Counted from the first letter of the stretch, positions 47,775 to 57,830 are shown. The stretch is 64,000 nucleotides of DNA from Escherichia coli (GCF_044324875.1 NZ_CP172185.1); one strand, 5' to 3'. The notes: generated by a model from the letters alone, not told the origin. Numbers and translations are program-made.

Positions 47775-48680
47775 ATGCGTCGAACGTTTATCAAAAAAGA
47801 AGGCGTCGTCATCACGACACTGGCCCGTTATTTGTTGGGTGAAAAGTGCGGTAATCGACTGAAAACCATAGATGAGCTGGCAACTGAATGCCGTTCATCC
47901 GTTGGCCTGACGCAGGCCGCGTTGAAAACGCTGGAATCAAGCGGAGCGATACGGATTGAACGCCGTGGGCGCAATGGCAGTTATCTGGTCGAGATGGATA
48001 ACAAAGCATTGCTGACTCATGTGGATATCAACAACGTGGTATGTGCGATGCCCTTGCCCTATACCCGTTTGTACGAAGGCCTGGCGAGCGGATTGAAAGC
48101 CCAGTTCGATGGCATTCCTTTTTACTATGCGCATATGCGCGGCGCGGATATTCGCGTGGAGTGTTTACTTAACGGCGTGTATGACATGGCGGTTGTTTCC
48201 CGACTGGCGGCGGAAAGTTATCTCACGCAAAAAGGCTTATGCCTCGCGCTGGAGTTGGGGCCGCACACCTACGTTGGCGAGCACCAGTTGATTTGCCGTA
48301 AAGGCGAGTCCGCAAACGTGAAGCGCGTGGGGCTGGATAACCGTTCGGCGGATCAGAAAATCATGACCGATGTCTTTTTTGGCGATAGTGATGTGGAACG
48401 TGTCGATCTCTCTTATCACGAGAGTTTACAACGCATTGTTAAAGGCGATGTTGATGCGGTGATCTGGAACGTGGTGGCGGAAAACGAACTGACCATGCTG
48501 GGATTAGAAGCGACGCCGCTCACAGACGATCCGCGATTTTTACAGGCCACCGAAGCCGTGATCCTGACGCGAGTCGATGATTACCCAATGCAACAATTGC
48601 TGCGTGCAGTTGTTGATAAACAGGCCCTGCTTGCCCATCAACAACGAGTGGTCAGTGGGGAACAGGAACCCAGTTATTAA
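47775..48680 (+). CDS. yhfZ: putative HTH transcriptional regulator of the yhf cluster
   Basis: 301-aa ORF recognised as YhfZ. Confidence 0.8.
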   Translation: MRRTFIKKEGVVITTLARYLLGEKCGNRLKTIDELATECRSSVGLTQAALKTLESSGAIRIERRGRNGSYLVEMDNKALLTHVDINNVVCAMPLPYTRLYEGLASGLKAQFDGIPFYYAHMRGADIRVECLLNGVYDMAVVSRLAAESYLTQKGLCLALELGPHTYVGEHQLICRKGESANVKRVGLDNRSADQKIMTDVFFGDSDVERVDLSYHESLQRIVKGDVDAVIWNVVAENELTMLGLEATPLTDDPRFLQATEAVILTRVDDYPMQQLLRAVVDKQALLAHQQRVVSGEQEPSY

Positions 48681-48696
48681 ACGAAAGGCATCTGAA

Positions 48697-48807
48697 ATGG
48701 AAACCAGACTCAACCTGCTTTGCGATGCAGGCGTTATTGATAAGGACATCTGCAAAGGCATGATGCAGGTCGTCAACGTACTGGAAACTGAGTGTCATCT
48801 ACCGGTG
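48697..48807 (+). pseudogene. yhfY: 5' fragment (37 codons) of PRD-domain gene yhfY, interrupted by IS insertion
   Basis: ATG at 48697 with upstream AAAGG; frame METRLNLLCDAGVIDKDICKGMMQVVNVLETECHLPV runs into the IS end. Confidence 0.75.
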
Positions 48808-48880
48808 TGCGTATTCCGCTCTATTCGATCACGGATTGGCATCGAAGTCCGATCAGCGATTCGCATCCATTCGATCAACC
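48808..48880. repeat. IS21-family terminal repeat block (istB-proximal end)
   Basis: Reverse complement of the other end aligns over the tcgatc motif; repeated cgatcacggattggcatcg / cgatcagcgattcgcatcc units. Confidence 0.6.
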
Positions 48881-48906
48881 GGGAACTTAACTTTTTCTAC
48901 CGCTTT

Positions 48907-55063: not shown

Positions 55064-55417
55064 ATGAAAAAGATTGGTGTTGCAGGCTTACAGCGTGAGC
55101 AGATTAAAAAAACCATTGAAGCGACGGCTCCTGGCTGTTTTGAAGTTTTCATTCACAACGACATGGAAGCGGCAATGAAAGTGAAATCCGGGCAACTGGA
55201 TTACTACATCGGCGCGTGTAATACCGGTGCGGGCGCGGCATTGTCGATTGCCATCGCGGTGATTGGCTATAACAAAAGTTGCACCATTGCCAAACCAGGC
55301 ATTAAAGCGAAAGACGAACATATCGCCAAAATGATCGCTGAAGGAAAAGTGGCGTTTGGGCTTTCCGTTGAGCATGTCGAACACGCGATTCCGATGCTGA
55401 TTAACCATCTGAAATAA
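55064..55417 (+). CDS. yhfU: small protein of unknown function
   Basis: 117-aa frame from MKKIGVAGLQ; conserved position between php and yhfT. Confidence 0.7.
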   Translation: MKKIGVAGLQREQIKKTIEATAPGCFEVFIHNDMEAAMKVKSGQLDYYIGACNTGAGAALSIAIAVIGYNKSCTIAKPGIKAKDEHIAKMIAEGKVAFGLSVEHVEHAIPMLINHLK

Positions 55418-55428
55418 AAGGCACGACT

Positions 55429-56733
55429 ATGGATCTGTATATTCAGATTATCGTGGTGGCGTGCCTGACGGGTATGACATCGCTTCTGGCGCATCGCTCG
55501 GCGGCTGTTTTTCATGACGGTATCCGCCCGATCCTGCCGCAACTGATTGAAGGCTATATGAACCGTCGCGAGGCGGGGAGTATCGCTTTTGGTCTGAGCA
55601 TTGGTTTTGTGGCCTCGGTGGGGATCTCTTTTACCCTGAAAACCGGGCTGCTCAACGCATGGTTACTCTTTCTTCCTACCGATATCCTCGGCGTACTGGC
55701 GATAAACAGCCTGATGGCGTTTGGTCTTGGCGCTATCTGGGGCGTGTTGATCCTCACCTGTCTGTTGCCAGTAAACCAGCTGCTGACCGCGCTACCGGTG
55801 GATGTATTAGGTAGTCTGGGGGAATTAAGCTCGCCGGTGGTTTCAGCTTTTGCACTGTTCCCTCTGGTGGCGATTTTCTACCAGTTTGGCTGGAAGCAAA
55901 GTCTGATCGCCGCCGTGGTGGTACTGATGACCCGTGTGGTCGTCGTGCGCTATTTCCCACATCTTAACCCTGAATCCATCGAAATCTTTATTGGCATGGT
56001 GATGCTGCTGGGGATCGCGATAACTCACGACTTGCGTCATCGTGATGAAAATGACATTGATGCCAGCGGGCTTTCGGTGTTTGAAGAACGCACGTCACGG
56101 ATTATCAAAAACTTACCGTATATCGCCATCGTGGGAGCATTGATTGCCGCCGTTGCCAGCATGAAGATTTTCGCCGGTAGTGAAGTGTCGATCTTCACTC
56201 TGGAGAAAGCGTACTCCGCAGGCGTAACGCCGGAACAATCGCAAACACTAATCAACCAGGCAGCTCTGGCGGAATTTATGCGCGGACTGGGTTTTGTGCC
56301 GTTGATTGCCACCACCGCGTTAGCCACCGGCGTATATGCAGTTGCGGGCTTTACCTTTGTTTATGCGGTGGGCTATCTCTCGCCGAATCCGATGGTTGCA
56401 GCGGTATTAGGCGCAGTGGTTATTTCGGCGGAAGTCTTGCTGCTTCGTTCGATCGGCAAATGGCTGGGGCGCTACCCGTCGGTGCGTAATGCGTCGGATA
56501 ACATCCGTAACGCCATGAATATGCTGATGGAAGTGGCGTTGCTGGTCGGTTCGATTTTCGCAGCAATTAAAATGGCGGGTTATACCGGATTTTCTATCGC
56601 AGTTGCCATTTACTTCCTCAACGAATCCCTGGGCCGTCCGGTACAGAAAATGGCGGCACCGGTCGTGGCAGTAATGATCACCGGTATTCTGCTGAATGTT
56701 CTTTACTGGTTTGGCTTGTTCGTTCCGGCTTAA
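55429..56733 (+). CDS. yhfT: polytopic inner-membrane protein, putative transporter
   Basis: 434-aa highly hydrophobic ORF. Confidence 0.8.
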   Translation: MDLYIQIIVVACLTGMTSLLAHRSAAVFHDGIRPILPQLIEGYMNRREAGSIAFGLSIGFVASVGISFTLKTGLLNAWLLFLPTDILGVLAINSLMAFGLGAIWGVLILTCLLPVNQLLTALPVDVLGSLGELSSPVVSAFALFPLVAIFYQFGWKQSLIAAVVVLMTRVVVVRYFPHLNPESIEIFIGMVMLLGIAITHDLRHRDENDIDASGLSVFEERTSRIIKNLPYIAIVGALIAAVASMKIFAGSEVSIFTLEKAYSAGVTPEQSQTLINQAALAEFMRGLGFVPLIATTALATGVYAVAGFTFVYAVGYLSPNPMVAAVLGAVVISAEVLLLRSIGKWLGRYPSVRNASDNIRNAMNMLMEVALLVGSIFAAIKMAGYTGFSIAVAIYFLNESLGRPVQKMAAPVVAVMITGILLNVLYWFGLFVPA

Positions 56734-56744
56734 GGAAGGCACCT

Positions 56745-57830
56745 ATGAAGACGTTTCCTCTGCAAAGCCTGACGCTTATTGAGGCGCAGCAAAAGCAGTT
56801 TGCGCTGGTGGACACGATTTGCCGCCATTTTCCCGGCAGCGAGTTTCTTACCCGCGGGGATTTGGGCTTAACGCCGGGGCTGAATCAACCGCGCATTACC
56901 CAGCGAGTGGAACAGGTGCTGGCTGATGCATTTCACGCACAGGCTGCGGCGCTGGTACAGGGCGCGGGTACTGGCGCGATCCGTGCGGCGTTGGCGGCTT
57001 TGCTCAAACCGGGGCAGCGTCTTCTGGTGCATGACGCGCCTGTTTACCCGACGACTCAGGTCATTATTGAGCAGATGGGGCTGACGCTTATTACTGCTAA
57101 TTTCAATGACCTGTCGGCACTTAAGCAGGTCGTCGAAGAGCAACAACCGGATGCGGCTCTGGTGCAGCATACGCGCCAGCAGCCGCAGGACGGGTACATT
57201 CTGGCAGATGTGCTGGCAACGTTGCGCTCGGCTGGCGTTCCTGCATTAACCGATGACAACTATGCGGTGATGAAAGTGGCGCGAATTGGCTGCGAATGCG
57301 GGGCAAATGTCTCGACTTTTTCCTGCTTCAAGCTGTTTGGGCCGGAGGGGGTTGGCGCGGTGGTAGGCGATGCCGATGTTATTAGTCGGATTCGCTCCAC
57401 GCTCTACTCCGGCGGCAGCCAGATTCAGGGCGCTCAGGCGTTGGAAGTCTTGCGTGGGTTGGTGTTTGCGCCAGTGATGCACGCGGTGCAGGCGGGGGTA
57501 TCTGAACGGTTGCTGGCTTTACTTAACGGTGGCGCAGTGGCGGAAGTGAAAAGCGCGGTGATTGCCAATGCGCAGTCGAAGGTGTTGATTGTGGAGTTTC
57601 ATCAGCCGATTGCCGCCAGAGTACTGGAAGAGGCGCAAAAGCTCGGTGCCTTGCCTTACCCGGTCGGTGCAGAGTCGAAATATGAAATCCCGCCGCTCTT
57701 TTACCGTCTTTCCGGAACGTTTCGCCAGGCGAATCCGCAACTCGAACATTACGCGATTCGTATTAACCCAAATCGCAGCGGTGAAGAGACGGTGCTGCGG
57801 ATTTTGCGTGAGAGTATTGCCAGTATTTAA
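56745..57830 (+). CDS. yhfS: putative PLP-dependent fold-type-I enzyme (function unknown)
   Basis: 361-aa ORF; candidate PLP-lysine context FSCFKLFGP. Confidence 0.8.
   Translation: MKTFPLQSLTLIEAQQKQFALVDTICRHFPGSEFLTRGDLGLTPGLNQPRITQRVEQVLADAFHAQAAALVQGAGTGAIRAALAALLKPGQRLLVHDAPVYPTTQVIIEQMGLTLITANFNDLSALKQVVEEQQPDAALVQHTRQQPQDGYILADVLATLRSAGVPALTDDNYAVMKVARIGCECGANVSTFSCFKLFGPEGVGAVVGDADVISRIRSTLYSGGSQIQGAQALEVLRGLVFAPVMHAVQAGVSERLLALLNGGAVAEVKSAVIANAQSKVLIVEFHQPIAARVLEEAQKLGALPYPVGAESKYEIPPLFYRLSGTFRQANPQLEHYAIRINPNRSGEETVLRILRESIASI

Follow-up and report, generated by a model that had tools for sequence, protein, structure and literature searches.

Organization of the yhf Locus

The window, a stretch of 64,000 nucleotides of Escherichia coli DNA, carries at positions 47,775 to 57,830 the long-known yhfZY/yhfXW-php-yhfUTS cluster (table 1). 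An earlier note made from this DNA had described eight co-directional genes. Their strand, positions, and junctions hold, but only seven are full length; an insertion sequence (IS) has broken the eighth, yhfY, in two. That note had named "the IS" only in passing. The stop codon of yhfX directly adjoins the start codon of yhfW (TAA then ATG), yhfW shares its last 4 bp (ATGA) with php, and gaps of 10–11 bp separate php, yhfU, yhfT, and yhfS. On the upstream side, the trpS terminator divides the cluster from the dam-rpe-gph-trpS genes; alignment of upstream regions revealed an equivalent stem-loop in other Escherichia and in Citrobacter. For the seven intact genes, dN/dS against the Citrobacter and Trabulsiella orthologs, at saturated dS, ranges from 0.02 to 0.14. 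Judged by these ratios, they are real genes under purifying selection and not chance ORFs.

Table 1. Features of the yhf Cluster and Its Upstream Region (positions in the window).
Feature	Position	Strand	Description
trpS intrinsic terminator	47630..47655	+	Stem-loop and T run; AAAAACCGGGGAAACCCGGTTTTTTT, read directly
Predicted CRP-like site	47684..47699	+	TGTGA-N6-TCGCC; from alignment of enterobacterial upstream regions
Operator O1	47726..47745	+	ATCTTCATTTTTATGAAGAT; starts 49 bp 5′ of yhfZ ATG; motif AT.TTCA-N6-TGAA.AT
Operator O2	47750..47769	+	ATATTCATTTTATTGAAAAT; starts 25 bp 5′ of yhfZ ATG
yhfZ	47775..48680	+	Regulator: winged-helix DNA-binding domain and periplasmic-binding-protein-like sensor domain
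yhfY 5′ fragment	48697..48807	+	Codons 1–37; collinear with intact yhfY of locus L001 up to 48807
Left target-duplication copy	48802-48807	+	CCGGTG; last 6 bp of the yhfY 5′ fragment
ISSso4	48808..51446	-	IS21 family, 2,639 bp; ends read TG...CA
istB ORF of ISSso4	about 48907-49662	-	
istA ORF of ISSso4	about 49679-51244	-	
Right target-duplication copy	51447-51452	+	6 bp
yhfY 3′ fragment	51453-51704	+	Codons 38–120 and stop, 252 bp; holds PRD histidine H48
Operator O3	51737..51756	+	ATATTCAAAAAAATGAATAT; perfect palindrome; starts 51 bp 5′ of yhfX ATG, downstream of the IS
yhfX	51788..52951	+	Fold-type III PLP enzyme (Ala_racemase_N and YhfX-like_C)
yhfW	52952..54178	+	Phosphopentomutase-type metalloenzyme, alkaline-phosphatase superfamily
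php	54175..55053	+	Phosphotriesterase-homology protein; binuclear-metal TIM-barrel hydrolase
yhfU (DUF2620)	55064..55417	+	Small RpiB/LacAB-fold protein
yhfT (PF10797)	55429..56733	+	Polytopic membrane carrier, two internal repeats
yhfS	56745..57830	+	Fold-type I PLP enzyme, distant kin of Cys/Met-metabolism family

The yhfY gene is interrupted after 111 bp (codon 37) by ISSso4, flanked on both sides by the 6-bp target duplication CCGGTG. The element was identified by copies in other E. coli, identical at 100% over 100% coverage and annotated "IS21-like element ISSso4 family"; this identity indicates a recent insertion. None of the complete E. coli genomes searched carries the IS at this site, their best matches spanning 74% of the query, that is, all but the IS. 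As yhfY is destroyed but all the enzyme genes and the operator and promoter region of yhfX, located 3′ of ISSso4, are undisturbed, the strain most likely keeps the pathway, minus its control input from the sugar phosphotransferase system (PTS).

A Common Operator and Its Putative Regulators

The 64-kb window holds just three copies of the operator motif AT.TTCA-N6-TGAA.AT, each at the yhfZ or the yhfX promoter, and the 24-nt form of the motif matches twice versus 0.02 matches expected. The spacing of O1 to yhfZ is constant in most Enterobacteriaceae loci. O3 is preserved exactly or almost exactly in Escherichia, Citrobacter, Trabulsiella, Pluralibacter, and Enterobacter, with diverging flanks. 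In the fetched loci, 70 yhfZ genes have upstream sequence of sufficient length. Of these, 55 are preceded by the motif within 250 bp, and its density over these loci is 4.6 per kb upstream of yhfZ versus 0.04 per kb elsewhere, an enrichment of about 110-fold. The operator common to yhfZ and yhfX supports their predicted co-regulation, on which the earlier note had staked its reading of the cluster. Copies also precede Lac/cellobiose-type PTS genes (L006, L062/L063, L079, L081, and L084), a sulfatase operon and yhfU in a Vibrio (L070), and yhfU in L076 and L080.

YhfZ is the likely candidate for binding O1–O3, their co-occurrence being the basis of this assignment. The protein scores 373.9 bits against the NCBIfam model YhfZ_full (cutoff 260), and its C-terminal domain corresponds to PDB 2OZZ. 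The family profile weakly matches CodY/GntR winged-helix domains and the amino-acid-binding protein 4I62 (E = 8e-4); Pfam HTH_41 and YhfZ_C are recorded on homologs. For YhfY, homologs bear the Pfam PRD domain, the protein weakly matches TIGR03582 (EF_0829/AHA_3910 PRD family), and H48 and R55 are invariant among 20 homologs. Farther upstream of yhfZ lies a candidate CRP site, proposed from its likeness to the consensus TGTGA-N6-TCACA; its TGTGA half is invariant in the 13 enterobacterial upstream regions aligned (columns T80–A84).

Predicted Enzymes and Carrier

Profile searches and PDB matches bear out, broadly, the domains first assigned to the cluster (HTH, PRD, two PLP enzymes, a phosphopentomutase-like protein, a binuclear-metal amidohydrolase-superfamily protein, and a polytopic membrane protein). 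In the PDB, YhfX, YhfS, Php, and the YhfZ sensor domain are all entered without a functional name. YhfX is PDB 4KBX, entitled "uncharacterized protein YhfX." Its family profile finds alanine racemases (E = 1e-4) and D-threonine aldolase (4e-3), as well as D-3-hydroxyaspartate aldolase and dehydratase. K61, likely the PLP lysine, is invariant, as are 50 further columns. On the ornithine racemase Orr model, YhfX reaches 32 bits for a cutoff of 480. YhfS, which is PDB 4J8L ("uncharacterized protein YhfS"), weakly matches methionine gamma-lyase and cystathionine gamma-synthase (1e-9 to 1e-4), and the lysine of its FSCFK196 motif is invariant.

YhfW, named "phosphopentomutase" by NCBI, matches PDB phosphopentomutases at E = 1e-30, mainly over residues 236–402. 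All phosphopentomutase metal and nucleophile positions are retained: D10, D83, H88, D298, H302, D338, H339, and H350 do not vary, and T84 is conserved to 90% or more. However, YhfW falls below the DeoB equivalog cutoffs (179.7 vs. 256 and 143.5 vs. 341) and its cap domain does not align to DeoB.

Php is PDB 1BF6 and 4LEF. The HEHLH motif noticed at the outset lies at residues 12–16, and the metal ligands H12, H14, E125, H158, H186, and D243 are invariant among 17 homologs. Php scores far below the cutoffs of the OPH and phospho-furanose lactonase equivalogs. Phosphorylated acetyl esters are reportedly the only esters that it hydrolyzes; it is said to favor acylated glycerol-3-phosphate, to require the phosphate, and to lack lactonase activity. 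To our knowledge, Php is the only member of the cluster with known enzymology. Its kcat/Km is reportedly modest, so its true substrate has probably not been found.

YhfU, listed in the earlier note as a small unknown protein, is an RpiB-fold protein with the invariant loop D46...G50-x-C52-x-T54-G55-x-G57. Its scores fall short of the RpiB thresholds in Pfam and NCBIfam, and its histidine at the position of a conserved RpiB histidine is not conserved across the YhfU family. Its cysteine occupies the position of the RpiB catalytic base and not that of the EIIB phosphocysteine, so that YhfU may act as an isomerase instead of carrying phosphate. Wherever present, yhfU lies directly 5′ of yhfT, also where the two genes are found on their own (L003 and L090). 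Some distant loci (L004, L009, and L092) have YhfT but no YhfU. We found no solved structural relative of YhfT; in C. citroniae, YhfT carries a fused amidase domain.

Distribution and Genomic Neighborhoods

A core made of YhfZ, YhfY, Php, YhfU, YhfT, YhfX, and YhfW was found in Enterobacterales, Vibrionaceae, Fusobacteria, and metagenome contigs of unassigned taxonomy. As [YhfZ]-YhfY-Php-YhfU-YhfT-YhfX-YhfW, it is recognizable in Vibrio (L002), metagenome contigs (L005–L008), and Fusobacteria (L088 and L089), with YhfT identity down to 25–30%. The submodules Z-(Y)-Php-U-T and U-T-X-W are also found alone. In total, 307 of 100,044 species genomes harbor the module. YhfS, initially listed with the other genes of the cluster, is restricted to Enterobacteriaceae sensu stricto and Sebaldella and, on this distribution, is accessory, outside the conserved core. 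YhfW is absent from most Yersinia; phosphate migration is thus not universally required. No kinase was found among the conserved neighbors of 89 loci, although the enzymes of the module are of kinds acting on phosphorylated substrates.

A PTS EIIC gene adjoins the module in 11 loci of distant lineages, accompanied in six to seven of these by EIIB, EIIA, and DUF7916 genes, and PtsI is divergently placed in L091; no PTS genes lie beside the E. coli yhf cluster. In Vibrio comitans (L070), NagB, the GlcN-6-P deaminase (432 bits), is encoded directly 3′ of YhfW, and the operon includes a sulfatase and its maturase. NagB and the sulfatase were each seen in this one locus only. The PTS genes and sulfatase of Vibrionaceae have an operator copy directly 5′, but the deaminase gene does not. 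Vibrio operons also hold porin-like genes. In six loci, the module adjoins a gene whose product combines a signal-peptide-like N-terminus with a CBM5/12 chitin-binding module; directly 5′ of this gene, we found no operator copy. Other neighbors are a PhoC acid phosphatase and an e(P4) 5′-nucleotidase directly 3′ of yhfT in an Enterobacter sp. (L052), Cof-type phosphatases beside the module or close to it (L007, L005, and L089), a GH1 pseudogene near L007, an MTA/SAH nucleosidase (MtnN) adjoining a distant YhfT in L009, and ribose-type ABC genes adjoining YhfT in L092. The clues given by NagB, the sulfatase, the acid phosphatases, and MtnN come from single loci and point more than one way.

Adjacency to the frl operon, to which the earlier note had linked the cluster, was seen in Escherichia only (L001 and L012). 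In most Enterobacteriaceae and some E. coli, cysG-nirCDB lies 3′ of yhfS, and Vibrio and Fusobacteria have unrelated neighbors around the module. In L070, L084, and L089, the module has integrase or IS genes at its flanks.

A Putative Uptake and Catabolism Module

We propose that the yhf cluster is a PTS-linked uptake and catabolism module controlled by YhfZ and YhfY and combining ester hydrolysis, phosphate migration, and PLP chemistry, a reading to which we give about an even chance (0.5). Two transcription units, yhfZ-yhfY and yhfX-yhfW-php-yhfU-yhfT-yhfS, would be governed by YhfZ acting on three palindromic operators, two overlapping the yhfZ promoter and one preceding yhfX. YhfY, a stand-alone PRD protein with a single invariant PRD histidine (H48), probably ties the switch to the PTS phosphorylation state. 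The YhfT carrier and its RpiB-fold, Cys-loop partner YhfU would import a small compound that either is a phosphate ester beforehand or becomes one during uptake. Php, as a binuclear-metal esterase, would then free the phosphorylated intermediate of an O-acyl or aminoacyl group, YhfW would shift its phosphate to another position on the sugar or polyol backbone, and YhfX, together with YhfS in Enterobacteriaceae, would carry out PLP chemistry at the amino-bearing carbon. The products would enter central metabolism, in V. comitans apparently via GlcN-6-P and NagB. Between biosynthetic and catabolic flux we infer the latter, the physiological substrates of the proteins being predictions. The literature searched holds no published substrate or pathway assignment for the cluster, as the earlier note had supposed. 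Its suggestion of a modified amino acid or amino sugar fits the NagB, cellobiose/chitobiose-type PTS, sulfatase, and chitin-binding-module genes of Vibrionaceae on one side, and the alanine-racemase/D-threonine-aldolase-type fold of YhfX and the likeness of the YhfZ sensor to an amino-acid-binding protein on the other.

Two more specific readings are possible, each with a rather low probability. The regulon might scavenge units of phosphodiester-linked cell-wall polymers (teichoic acids and related phosphoglycans), such as D-alanyl- or O-acetyl-glycerol/ribitol phosphate or GlcNAc-bearing fragments. Php would strip the D-alanyl or acetyl ester, YhfX racemize or degrade D-alanine, YhfW convert, for example, sn-glycerol-1-P to -3-P or ribitol-1-P to -5-P, and NagB receive the amino-sugar part; no kinase would be needed, because the substrate already carries phosphate. 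This agrees with the reported preference of Php for acylated glycerol-3-phosphate and its need for the phosphate, with alanine racemases as the best solved relatives of YhfX, with the resemblance of YhfW to a pentose/polyol-phosphate mutase, with NagB in L070 and the phosphatases of L052, L007, L005, and L089, and with the hosts: enterobacteria, Vibrionaceae, and a Sebaldella MAG, some of them gut or animal associated. The support is, however, wholly circumstantial. The likeness of YhfX to alanine racemases is weak, D-threonine aldolases being nearly as close, no glycerophosphodiesterase is conserved across the loci, the RpiB-fold YhfU is left without a role, and the chitin-binding-module protein, cellobiose-type PTS, and sulfatase of Vibrio suit a glycan better.

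Such a glycan, an extracellular one (for example, chitin/chitosan, sulfated glycosaminoglycan, or mucin), is the source in the second reading, no more probable than the first, in which the regulon would handle a modified amino sugar or an oxidized or O-acetylated derivative. Import would occur partly by the co-regulated Lac/cellobiose-type PTS, with Php as sugar-phosphate deacylase, YhfW as hexosamine 1/6-phosphomutase, YhfX as PLP epimerase or dehydratase at the 2-amino carbon, and GlcN-6-P as end product. The operator shared with the EIIB/EIIC/EIIA and DUF7916 operons, the CBM5/12 protein, the porin-like genes, the V. comitans sulfatase, maturase, and NagB, and the GH1 pseudogene all argue for it. 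Yet E. coli and most Enterobacteriaceae lack these extra genes, NagB and the sulfatase are single occurrences, and the phosphate requirement and missing lactonase activity of Php come from earlier reports. A fold-type III PLP enzyme would also have to act on an amino sugar, for which we know of no precedent.

Salvage of pentoses or nucleoside derivatives is improbable. In this reading, YhfW would be a true second phosphopentomutase, YhfU would serve as a minimal form of ribose-5-phosphate isomerase, and YhfT would transport a ribosyl compound, the PLP enzymes taking the amino-acid moiety, for example, of an S-ribosyl or aminoacyl-ribose compound. The NCBI name and catalytic residues of YhfW, the fold of YhfU, the likeness of YhfS to Cys/Met-metabolism enzymes, and the nucleosidase, ABC, and nucleotidase genes of L009, L092, and L052 are in its favor, but these neighbors come from single, distant loci and the core encodes neither nucleoside phosphorylase nor nucleosidase. 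The scores of YhfW against DeoB, its unaligned cap domain, and the subthreshold scores and variable histidine of YhfU also weigh against it. We consider equally improbable that this strain carries the cluster in a cryptic or decaying state, with the IS as a sign of lost function: yhfY is indeed destroyed and the module behaves as a mobile, patchy island, but none of the seven other genes is truncated, their catalytic residues are intact and purifying selection on them is strong, the yhfX operator and promoter region is untouched, and the IS is a recent arrival. Least probable of all is that the cluster and the neighboring frl operon jointly process glycated amino acids (Amadori or Heyns products): frlR-frlDCBA adjoins the cluster in the window and many E. 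coli, and the cluster has both amino-acid-type and sugar-phosphate-type enzymes, but cysG-nirCDB is the neighbor in most other Enterobacteriaceae and in some E. coli, more distant taxa have unrelated neighbors, the two clusters are convergent with a regulator each, and the frl region of the window contains no operator copy.

The conserved core, the accessory status of YhfS, the limitation of frl adjacency to Escherichia, the common operator, the RpiB fold of YhfU, the YhfT repeats, and the lack of a conserved kinase are new here, and the PTS-linked uptake and catabolism module that we propose is now open to direct tests. Comparison with other bacteria suggests one regulated unit dedicated to a phosphorylated amino-sugar-like or amino-acid-ester-like compound. 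The yhf system is real and under-described, and of a broadly familiar kind.

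Organization of the yhf Cluster and Insertion of ISSso4

The earlier note had described yhfZ-yhfY-yhfX-yhfW-php-yhfU-yhfT-yhfS as eight co-directional genes with tight or overlapping junctions. Seven of these genes are intact in the window, and their spacing is as claimed: yhfX ends where yhfW begins, yhfW shares 4 bp with php, and the next three gaps measure 10–11 bp. The eighth gene, yhfY, is interrupted by an IS. The next genes after yhfS, frlR-frlDCBA, are convergent. A consensus promoter and terminator scan of the cluster returned fewer promoter-like sites than shuffled sequence and no convincing internal terminator.

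Features of the yhf cluster in the window
Feature	Coordinates	Strand	Basis or remark
trpS terminator	47630-47655		clean
TGTGA-N6-TC.C element	47684-47699		conserved, ~90 bp before yhfZ
O1, putative operator	47726-47745		before yhfZ
O2, putative operator	47750-47769		before yhfZ
yhfZ	47775-48680	+	ORF list and match to annotated E. coli chromosomes
yhfY, interrupted	start 48697; break 48807/48808; resumes 51453		interrupted after 111 bp; comparison with intact Escherichia locus L001
ISSso4	48808-51446	istA and istB on -	IS21 family; 2,639 bp; in yhfY; TG...CA ends
O3, putative operator	51737-51756		before yhfX
yhfX	51788-52951	+	ORF list and match to annotated E. coli chromosomes
yhfW	52952-54178	+	ORF list and match to annotated E. 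coli chromosomes
php	54175-55053	+	ORF list and match to annotated E. coli chromosomes
yhfU	55064-55417	+	ORF list and match to annotated E. coli chromosomes
yhfT	55429-56733	+	ORF list and match to annotated E. coli chromosomes
yhfS	56745-57830	+	ORF list and match to annotated E. coli chromosomes
Suggested recombination tract	51788-54178		mosaic of dS values, yhfX-yhfW

The inserted element is 100% identical to annotated ISSso4 elements elsewhere in E. coli. Its two genes, its ends, the short target duplication (CCGGTG, 6 bp, on both sides), and the existence of identical copies place it in the IS21 family. Such copies occur on chromosomes and plasmids of at least 225 E. coli genomes, but ISSso4 is absent from the yhfY site in all 5,426 complete E. 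coli genomes that were searched. The insertion therefore looks recent and particular to the strain or lineage. It removes YhfY but leaves every enzyme gene, O3, and the promoter region of yhfX untouched, so that altered regulation is expected rather than loss of the pathway. The strain of the window is thus predicted to be a naturally deregulated variant. Relative to E. coli EcPNK004, dS is ∼0.12 for yhfX and yhfW, 0.005 for yhfZ, and 0 for the identical yhfT and yhfS, a mosaic that suggests a recombination tract spanning yhfX and yhfW.

Distribution of the yhf Module

Related loci were gathered from the YhfU alignment, and the comparison set comprises 89 of them. A YhfU relative is encoded in 307 of 100,044 species genomes. 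The core set, consisting of YhfZ, YhfY, Php, YhfU, YhfT, YhfX, and YhfW, recurs in variable order in Enterobacterales, Vibrionaceae, Fusobacteria, and metagenome or MAG contigs, with YhfT identity down to 25–30%. Two half-modules also occur: Z-(Y)-Php-U-T stands separately in L053, L056, L057, L059, and L061, and U-T-X-W in L058, L076, and L080. YhfS is accessory, being restricted to Enterobacteriaceae sensu stricto and one Sebaldella MAG. Most Yersinia loci lack yhfW and are organized as Z-Y-X-Php-U-T (L041–L043, L046–L048, L050, and L054); the gene is kept in Y. nurmii (L049). No kinase was found among the recurrent neighbors in the 89 loci. The usual enterobacterial neighbor is cysG-nirCDB. 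The Yersinia neighbors hmp, glnB, nadE, and glrR were set aside as unrelated housekeeping genes. Single-locus neighbors are Cof-type phosphatases (L005, L007, and L089), an MTA/SAH nucleosidase (L009), and ribose-type ABC genes (L092).

Several loci have particular organizations. One contig of Photobacterium lipolyticum (L060/L061) carries a full Z-Y-Php-U-T-X-W module and, at a distance of ∼8 kb, a further yhf-type module, Z-Php-U-T; between them lie a gene for a CBM5/12-module protein and a divergent operon of Lac-type PTS genes and DUF7916. In Enterobacter sp. BIGb0383 (L052, 11705-13408), yhfS is replaced by genes for a PhoC-type acid phosphatase and an e(P4)-family 5′-nucleotidase lipoprotein, on the same strand and directly after yhfT. 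An integrase-domain gene, a recombinase fragment, or an IS21 element lies beside the module in Vibrio comitans (L070, 12058-13227), in Sebaldella (L089, 5785-6357), and in L084 (14527-16792). Together with the 56% identity between the YhfS proteins of Sebaldella and E. coli, these mobile-element neighbors in three unrelated hosts point to horizontal transfer of the module.

A Putative Operator Common to yhf and PTS Genes

The spacer between yhfY and yhfX contains the perfect palindrome ATATTCA-AAAAAA-TGAATAT (O3), which is kept across genera while its flanks diverge. The yhfZ start is preceded by two more copies of the motif, at distances of 49 and 25 bp; upstream of both is an invariant TGTGA reminiscent of a CRP half-site. 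There are exactly three copies within the 64-kb window, and a search for the 24-nt form yields 2 hits where 0.02 are expected. Among the fetched loci, the motif occurs in the 250 bp ahead of 55 of the 70 yhfZ genes (4.6 per kb vs. 0.04 per kb elsewhere), including yhfZ genes of Vibrionaceae and Fusobacteria. In Yersinia, the operator is placed 92–108 bp before yhfZ, compared with 25 and 49 bp in the window. A metagenome scan with the operator ATNTTCAAAATAATGAANAT returned at least 120 AT-rich chance hits, and none of the matches listed was accompanied by yhf genes.

The motif is also found upstream of Lac/cellobiose-type PTS genes (L006, L062/L063, L079, L081, and L084), upstream of both a sulfatase operon and yhfU in V. 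comitans, and upstream of yhfU in L076 and L080. Its sharing across loci is phylogenetic-footprint evidence for one regulon, and in these other taxa it points to co-regulation with a PTS. In E. coli, the motif is common to two units. Independently, a published operon table groups php-yhfS-T-U-W-X into a single transcription unit that excludes yhfZ and yhfY. The cluster is very probably one co-regulated unit. A clean trpS terminator precedes the cluster, and behind it comes a conserved TGTGA-N6-TC.C element, a possible CRP site; if it is one, the cluster would be under catabolite control.

In 11 loci of unrelated lineages, the module has a Lac-family EIIC gene next to it, with EIIB, EIIA, and DUF7916 genes also present in 6–7 of them, and one contig with X-U-T encodes a divergent PtsI. 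We lean toward a link between the cluster and the PTS. DUF7916 (296 aa; L056, 4701-5591, minus strand; homologs in seven loci) always follows Lac-type PTS genes and shares their operator. Its sequence, with IIAGKMHGGG ... HIGDGGYGG, resembles a phosphate-binding TIM barrel with a possible Schiff-base lysine, although it matched no family and no structure. In several Vibrionaceae, the gene after yhfW encodes a protein of ∼730 aa that starts with a signal-peptide-like sequence and ends in a CBM5/12 chitin-binding module; no copy of the operator was found directly upstream of this gene. Porin-like genes lie inside two operons. The V. comitans operon has the order sulfatase, sulfatase maturase, porin-like, YhfY, YhfX, YhfW, NagB, YhfU, and YhfT.

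The Probable Regulators YhfZ and YhfY

YhfZ belongs to the family of GntR-type regulators defined by the full-length HMM NF041241 (373.9 bits, cutoff 260). It combines an N-terminal winged helix with a PBP-like C-terminal sensor domain, which is of the same family as PDB 2OZZ. Pfam records HTH_41 and YhfZ_C on its homologs, and the family profile has weak matches to winged helices of the CodY/GntR type and to a periplasmic protein that binds amino acids. From its co-occurrence with the motif, we infer that YhfZ is the likely factor acting at the predicted operator. YhfY homologs carry the PRD fold (PF00874). In an alignment of 20 sequences, H48 and R55 are invariant, and the second canonical PRD histidine is an asparagine in most members, that of E. 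coli included. YhfY is thus a PRD protein with one conserved histidine.

The Putative Carrier YhfT and Its Partner YhfU

In every locus with both genes, yhfU lies directly upstream of yhfT, and the pair occurs alone in L003 and L090. YhfU matches the RpiB fold clearly better than low-molecular-weight phosphatases (8.6) and PTS EIIB proteins (∼7.3). Its invariant loop, D46...G50-x-C52-x-T54-G55-x-G57 in a 20-sequence alignment, places C52 on the catalytic cysteine of RpiB, and the C-x-T-G-x-G loop is common to both (C-G-T-G-x-G). YhfU is not a true RpiB ortholog, however: matches to RpiB structures in the PDB have E values of only 0.45–0.9, no NCBIfam RpiB model matches, and Pfam places the protein in DUF2620. 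The histidine aligned with the conserved RpiB histidine is not kept in the family, and YhfU appears to lack the other catalytic and phosphate-binding residues of RpiB, namely an Asp-His pair, His/Asn residues for ring opening, and arginines near the C-terminus.

The predicted model of YhfT has a pLDDT of 95.9 and no real match among solved structures; in the AFDB it matches only its own family, whose members are all uncharacterized. With 303 clusters in a set of 1.84 billion representative proteins, this family is a small one, and its alignment contains no conserved stretch. The two halves of YhfT align weakly with each other (hhalign E value 1.8e-4 at 48% probability), which fits a two-repeat carrier. 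YhfT does not have the EIIC fold, nor YhfU the EIIB fold with its phosphocysteine position. The pair consists of a carrier and an obligatory RpiB-fold partner. In one clostridial species, Clostridium citroniae, YhfT is fused to an amidase-signature domain (AFDB G5HJH7). The same short match is found in a separate 343-aa ORF between yhfT and yhfS in the Sebaldella locus (L089, 11748-12779). This fusion and this neighbor hint at an amide bond in some versions of the substrate. A 341-aa ORF in L092 proved to be shikimate-dehydrogenase-like and not a homolog of the Sebaldella ORF. Searches of Pfam, NCBIfam, and PDB sequences returned no function for the 343-aa amidase-like ORF, DUF7916, or the 730-aa CBM5/12 protein.

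The Enzymes YhfX, YhfW, Php, and YhfS

YhfX (PDB 4KBX) is a fold-type III PLP enzyme. Its homologs combine the Pfam domains Ala_racemase_N and YhfX-like_C, and K61, the likely PLP lysine, is invariant. The nearest solved relatives by profile are alanine racemases (E value 1e-4), D-threonine aldolases, and D-3-hydroxyaspartate aldolase and dehydratase. The ornithine racemase Orr (NF040742) was rejected, at 32.2 bits against a cutoff of 480.

YhfW possesses the DeoB-type Mn-binding Asp/His set and Thr nucleophile. D10, D83, D298, H302, D338, H339, and H350 are invariant among 19 homologs and T84 is conserved in at least 90%; we take these residues to correspond to the metal ligands and the Asp-Thr nucleophile of the phosphopentomutase of Bacillus cereus. 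The best-aligned PDB stretch, residues 236–402, lies in the core domain, and the DeoB-homologous cap domain was not recovered. YhfW fails as a true DeoB against both models, NF003766 and TIGR01696 (179.7 bits vs. a cutoff of 256, and 143.5 vs. 341), and aligns end to end with PRK12383 (733 bits), a model that looks specific to YhfW.

Php (PDB 1BF6 and 4LEF) belongs to the phosphotriesterase/PLL family (PF02126, COG1735), with a TIM barrel and a binuclear metal center whose ligands H12, H14, E125, H158, H186, and D243 are invariant. Its scores exclude both OPH (101 bits, cutoff 500) and phospho-furanose lactonase (94.6 bits, cutoff 630). Nemmara, Raushel, and colleagues are said to have described in Biochemistry in 2018 that Php hydrolyzes phosphorylated glyceryl acetates. 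The best substrate was reportedly 1,2-diacetylglycerol-3-phosphate (kcat/Km ∼5e3 per M per s); phosphate was reportedly required, and no lactone was hydrolyzed. In all, the cluster encodes three enzymes with intact active sites, suited to hydrolyzing esters, transferring phosphoryl groups, and carrying out PLP chemistry.

The accessory protein YhfS (PDB 4J8L) is a fold-type I PLP enzyme, distant from methionine gamma-lyase and cystathionine gamma-synthase, with an invariant PLP-lysine motif, SCFK196. It does not qualify as a named enzyme of Cys/Met metabolism, the best score being 38 bits against the methionine gamma-lyase cutoff of 549.

Proposed Pathway and Candidate Substrates

We propose the following scheme, to which we give a probability of about one-half as a whole. 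YhfZ would repress from the putative operators O1–O3 in response to an amino-acid-like or sugar-phosphate effector, and YhfY would relay the phosphorylation state of the PTS. YhfT and YhfU would take up a compound that already is a phosphate ester or turns into one. We favor such an import because neither half-module has a kinase, though YhfW and, reportedly, Php act on phosphorylated molecules. Php would then take off an acyl or aminoacyl ester, YhfW would shift the phosphate, and YhfX, joined by YhfS in Enterobacteriaceae, would act at the amino carbon. The products would enter central metabolism, via GlcN-6-P where NagB is present.

Any specific substrate class is unlikely when taken singly. 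Teichoic-acid-type cell-wall units, such as D-alanyl or acetyl polyol phosphates, would suit Php, YhfW, YhfX, and the absence of a kinase; they do not suit the chitin-binding and cellobiose-PTS members, and we regard them as a doubtful candidate. A modified amino sugar from an extracellular glycan, which is equally doubtful, would account for the Vibrio members and NagB at the price of an unprecedented PLP chemistry. A more far-reaching version of the scheme, rather improbable in its entirety, sees in YhfT and YhfU an unrecognized PTS-dependent phosphorylating uptake system. The RpiB-fold YhfU would carry phosphate on Cys52 in place of a canonical EIIB, the unsolved-fold YhfT would replace EIIC, and the free-standing YhfY would report the phosphorylation state to YhfZ, a GntR/PBP-type repressor. 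Php, YhfW, and YhfX would break down polyol or amino-sugar phosphates that bear acyl or D-aminoacyl groups and stem from bacterial cell-wall polymers, the phosphomutase inverting the stereochemical sense of glycerol or ribitol phosphate.

Pentose or nucleoside salvage agrees with the names and folds of YhfW and YhfU, but both proteins failed the orthology tests, and we hold this function to be very unlikely. The idea that the cluster is a cryptic remnant is just as improbable, being contradicted by the intact active sites and by purifying selection on the seven intact genes (dN/dS 0.02–0.14 vs. Citrobacter and Trabulsiella, with dS saturated). Cooperation with the adjacent frl operon, whose proximity the earlier note had pointed out, is hardly credible: among the 89 loci, frlR adjoins the module only in L001 and L012, both from Escherichia, and the motif is absent from the frl region of the window. 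We reject this link because the adjacency is not conserved.

The yhf cluster is among the larger remaining E. coli operons of unassigned function, and four of its eight proteins have crystal structures yet no physiological role. In the literature searched, we found no function assigned to it and only incidental mentions in screens, gene lists, and gap-filling (E value 0.47). Since the genes are already annotated and partly crystallized, the object is not new; its biology is still undescribed. The proposed scheme narrows this orphan to a defined putative operator, a probable regulator, a PTS connection, and a few candidate substrate classes, and argues that phosphorylation of the substrate must take place either before or in the course of its uptake. 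Vibrio and Photobacterium strains appear to be better models, as the regulon there adds PTS, porin-like, and sulfatase genes, with a chitin-binding-module protein alongside. If YhfT/YhfU were a new uptake mechanism, or the substrate a fragment of cell wall or host glycan, the cluster would add a nutrient-scavenging route of relevance to gut and marine bacteria.

Comparison with Known Systems

The yhf cluster resembles PRD/PTS operons of the Lac/cellobiose type, such as chbBCARFG of E. coli (chitobiose), in which enzymes are co-regulated with a carrier. The PTS connection of yhf lies in the PRD histidine and in the operator common to the EIIB/EIIC/EIIA genes of Vibrionaceae; a CRP-like site and a predicted amidohydrolase-type deacylase step on a phosphorylated intermediate are further likenesses. 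However, the yhf PRD is a free-standing protein of 120 aa beside a GntR/PBP-type regulator and is not fused to an antiterminator or activator. YhfT is not a recognizable EIIC, and the core has two PLP enzymes and a phosphomutase but no phospho-glycosidase.

A stand-alone PRD is also found in the EF_0829/AHA_3910 cluster (TIGR03582), whose model YhfY matches weakly (26.5 bits, cutoff 69). Both types of cluster encode a small glycine-rich protein, unusual membrane proteins, an amidohydrolase-superfamily enzyme, and a fold-type I PLP enzyme. In the dga operon of Salmonella (D-glucosaminate), the PTS hands an amino-sugar acid phosphate to a PLP ammonia-lyase. Unlike both, the yhf core lacks a KDPG-type aldolase and includes a phosphomutase and a PLP enzyme of fold type III. 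In Escherichia, frlABCDR shares adjacency with yhf and handles a sugar-amino-acid conjugate via a phosphorylated intermediate, but it has its own GntR regulator, lies on the opposite strand, and has no protein family or operator in common with yhf.

Single proteins also have better-known counterparts. Php shares the PTE fold and the binuclear metal center with the phospho-sugar lactonases of COG1735 (Lmo2620, Bh0225, and Mycoplasma MS53_0025), which are phosphate-dependent and encoded in PTS-type sugar operons; in Php, Glu125 presumably replaces their carboxylated lysine as bridging ligand. YhfW and DeoB of the deo operon have in common the alkaline-phosphatase-superfamily core, the metal ligands, and the Asp-Thr nucleophile, but the cap (substrate) domain is unaligned and the genomic partner of YhfW is a PLP enzyme, not a nucleoside phosphorylase. 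Compared with RpiB/LacAB, YhfU is ∼30 residues shorter and is genetically locked to a membrane carrier. The free-standing PRD, the unsolved-fold carrier, and its RpiB-fold partner distinguish yhf from PRD/PTS sugar operons, and the combination of a PTE-type esterase, a mutase, and a fold-type III PLP enzyme sets the cluster apart.
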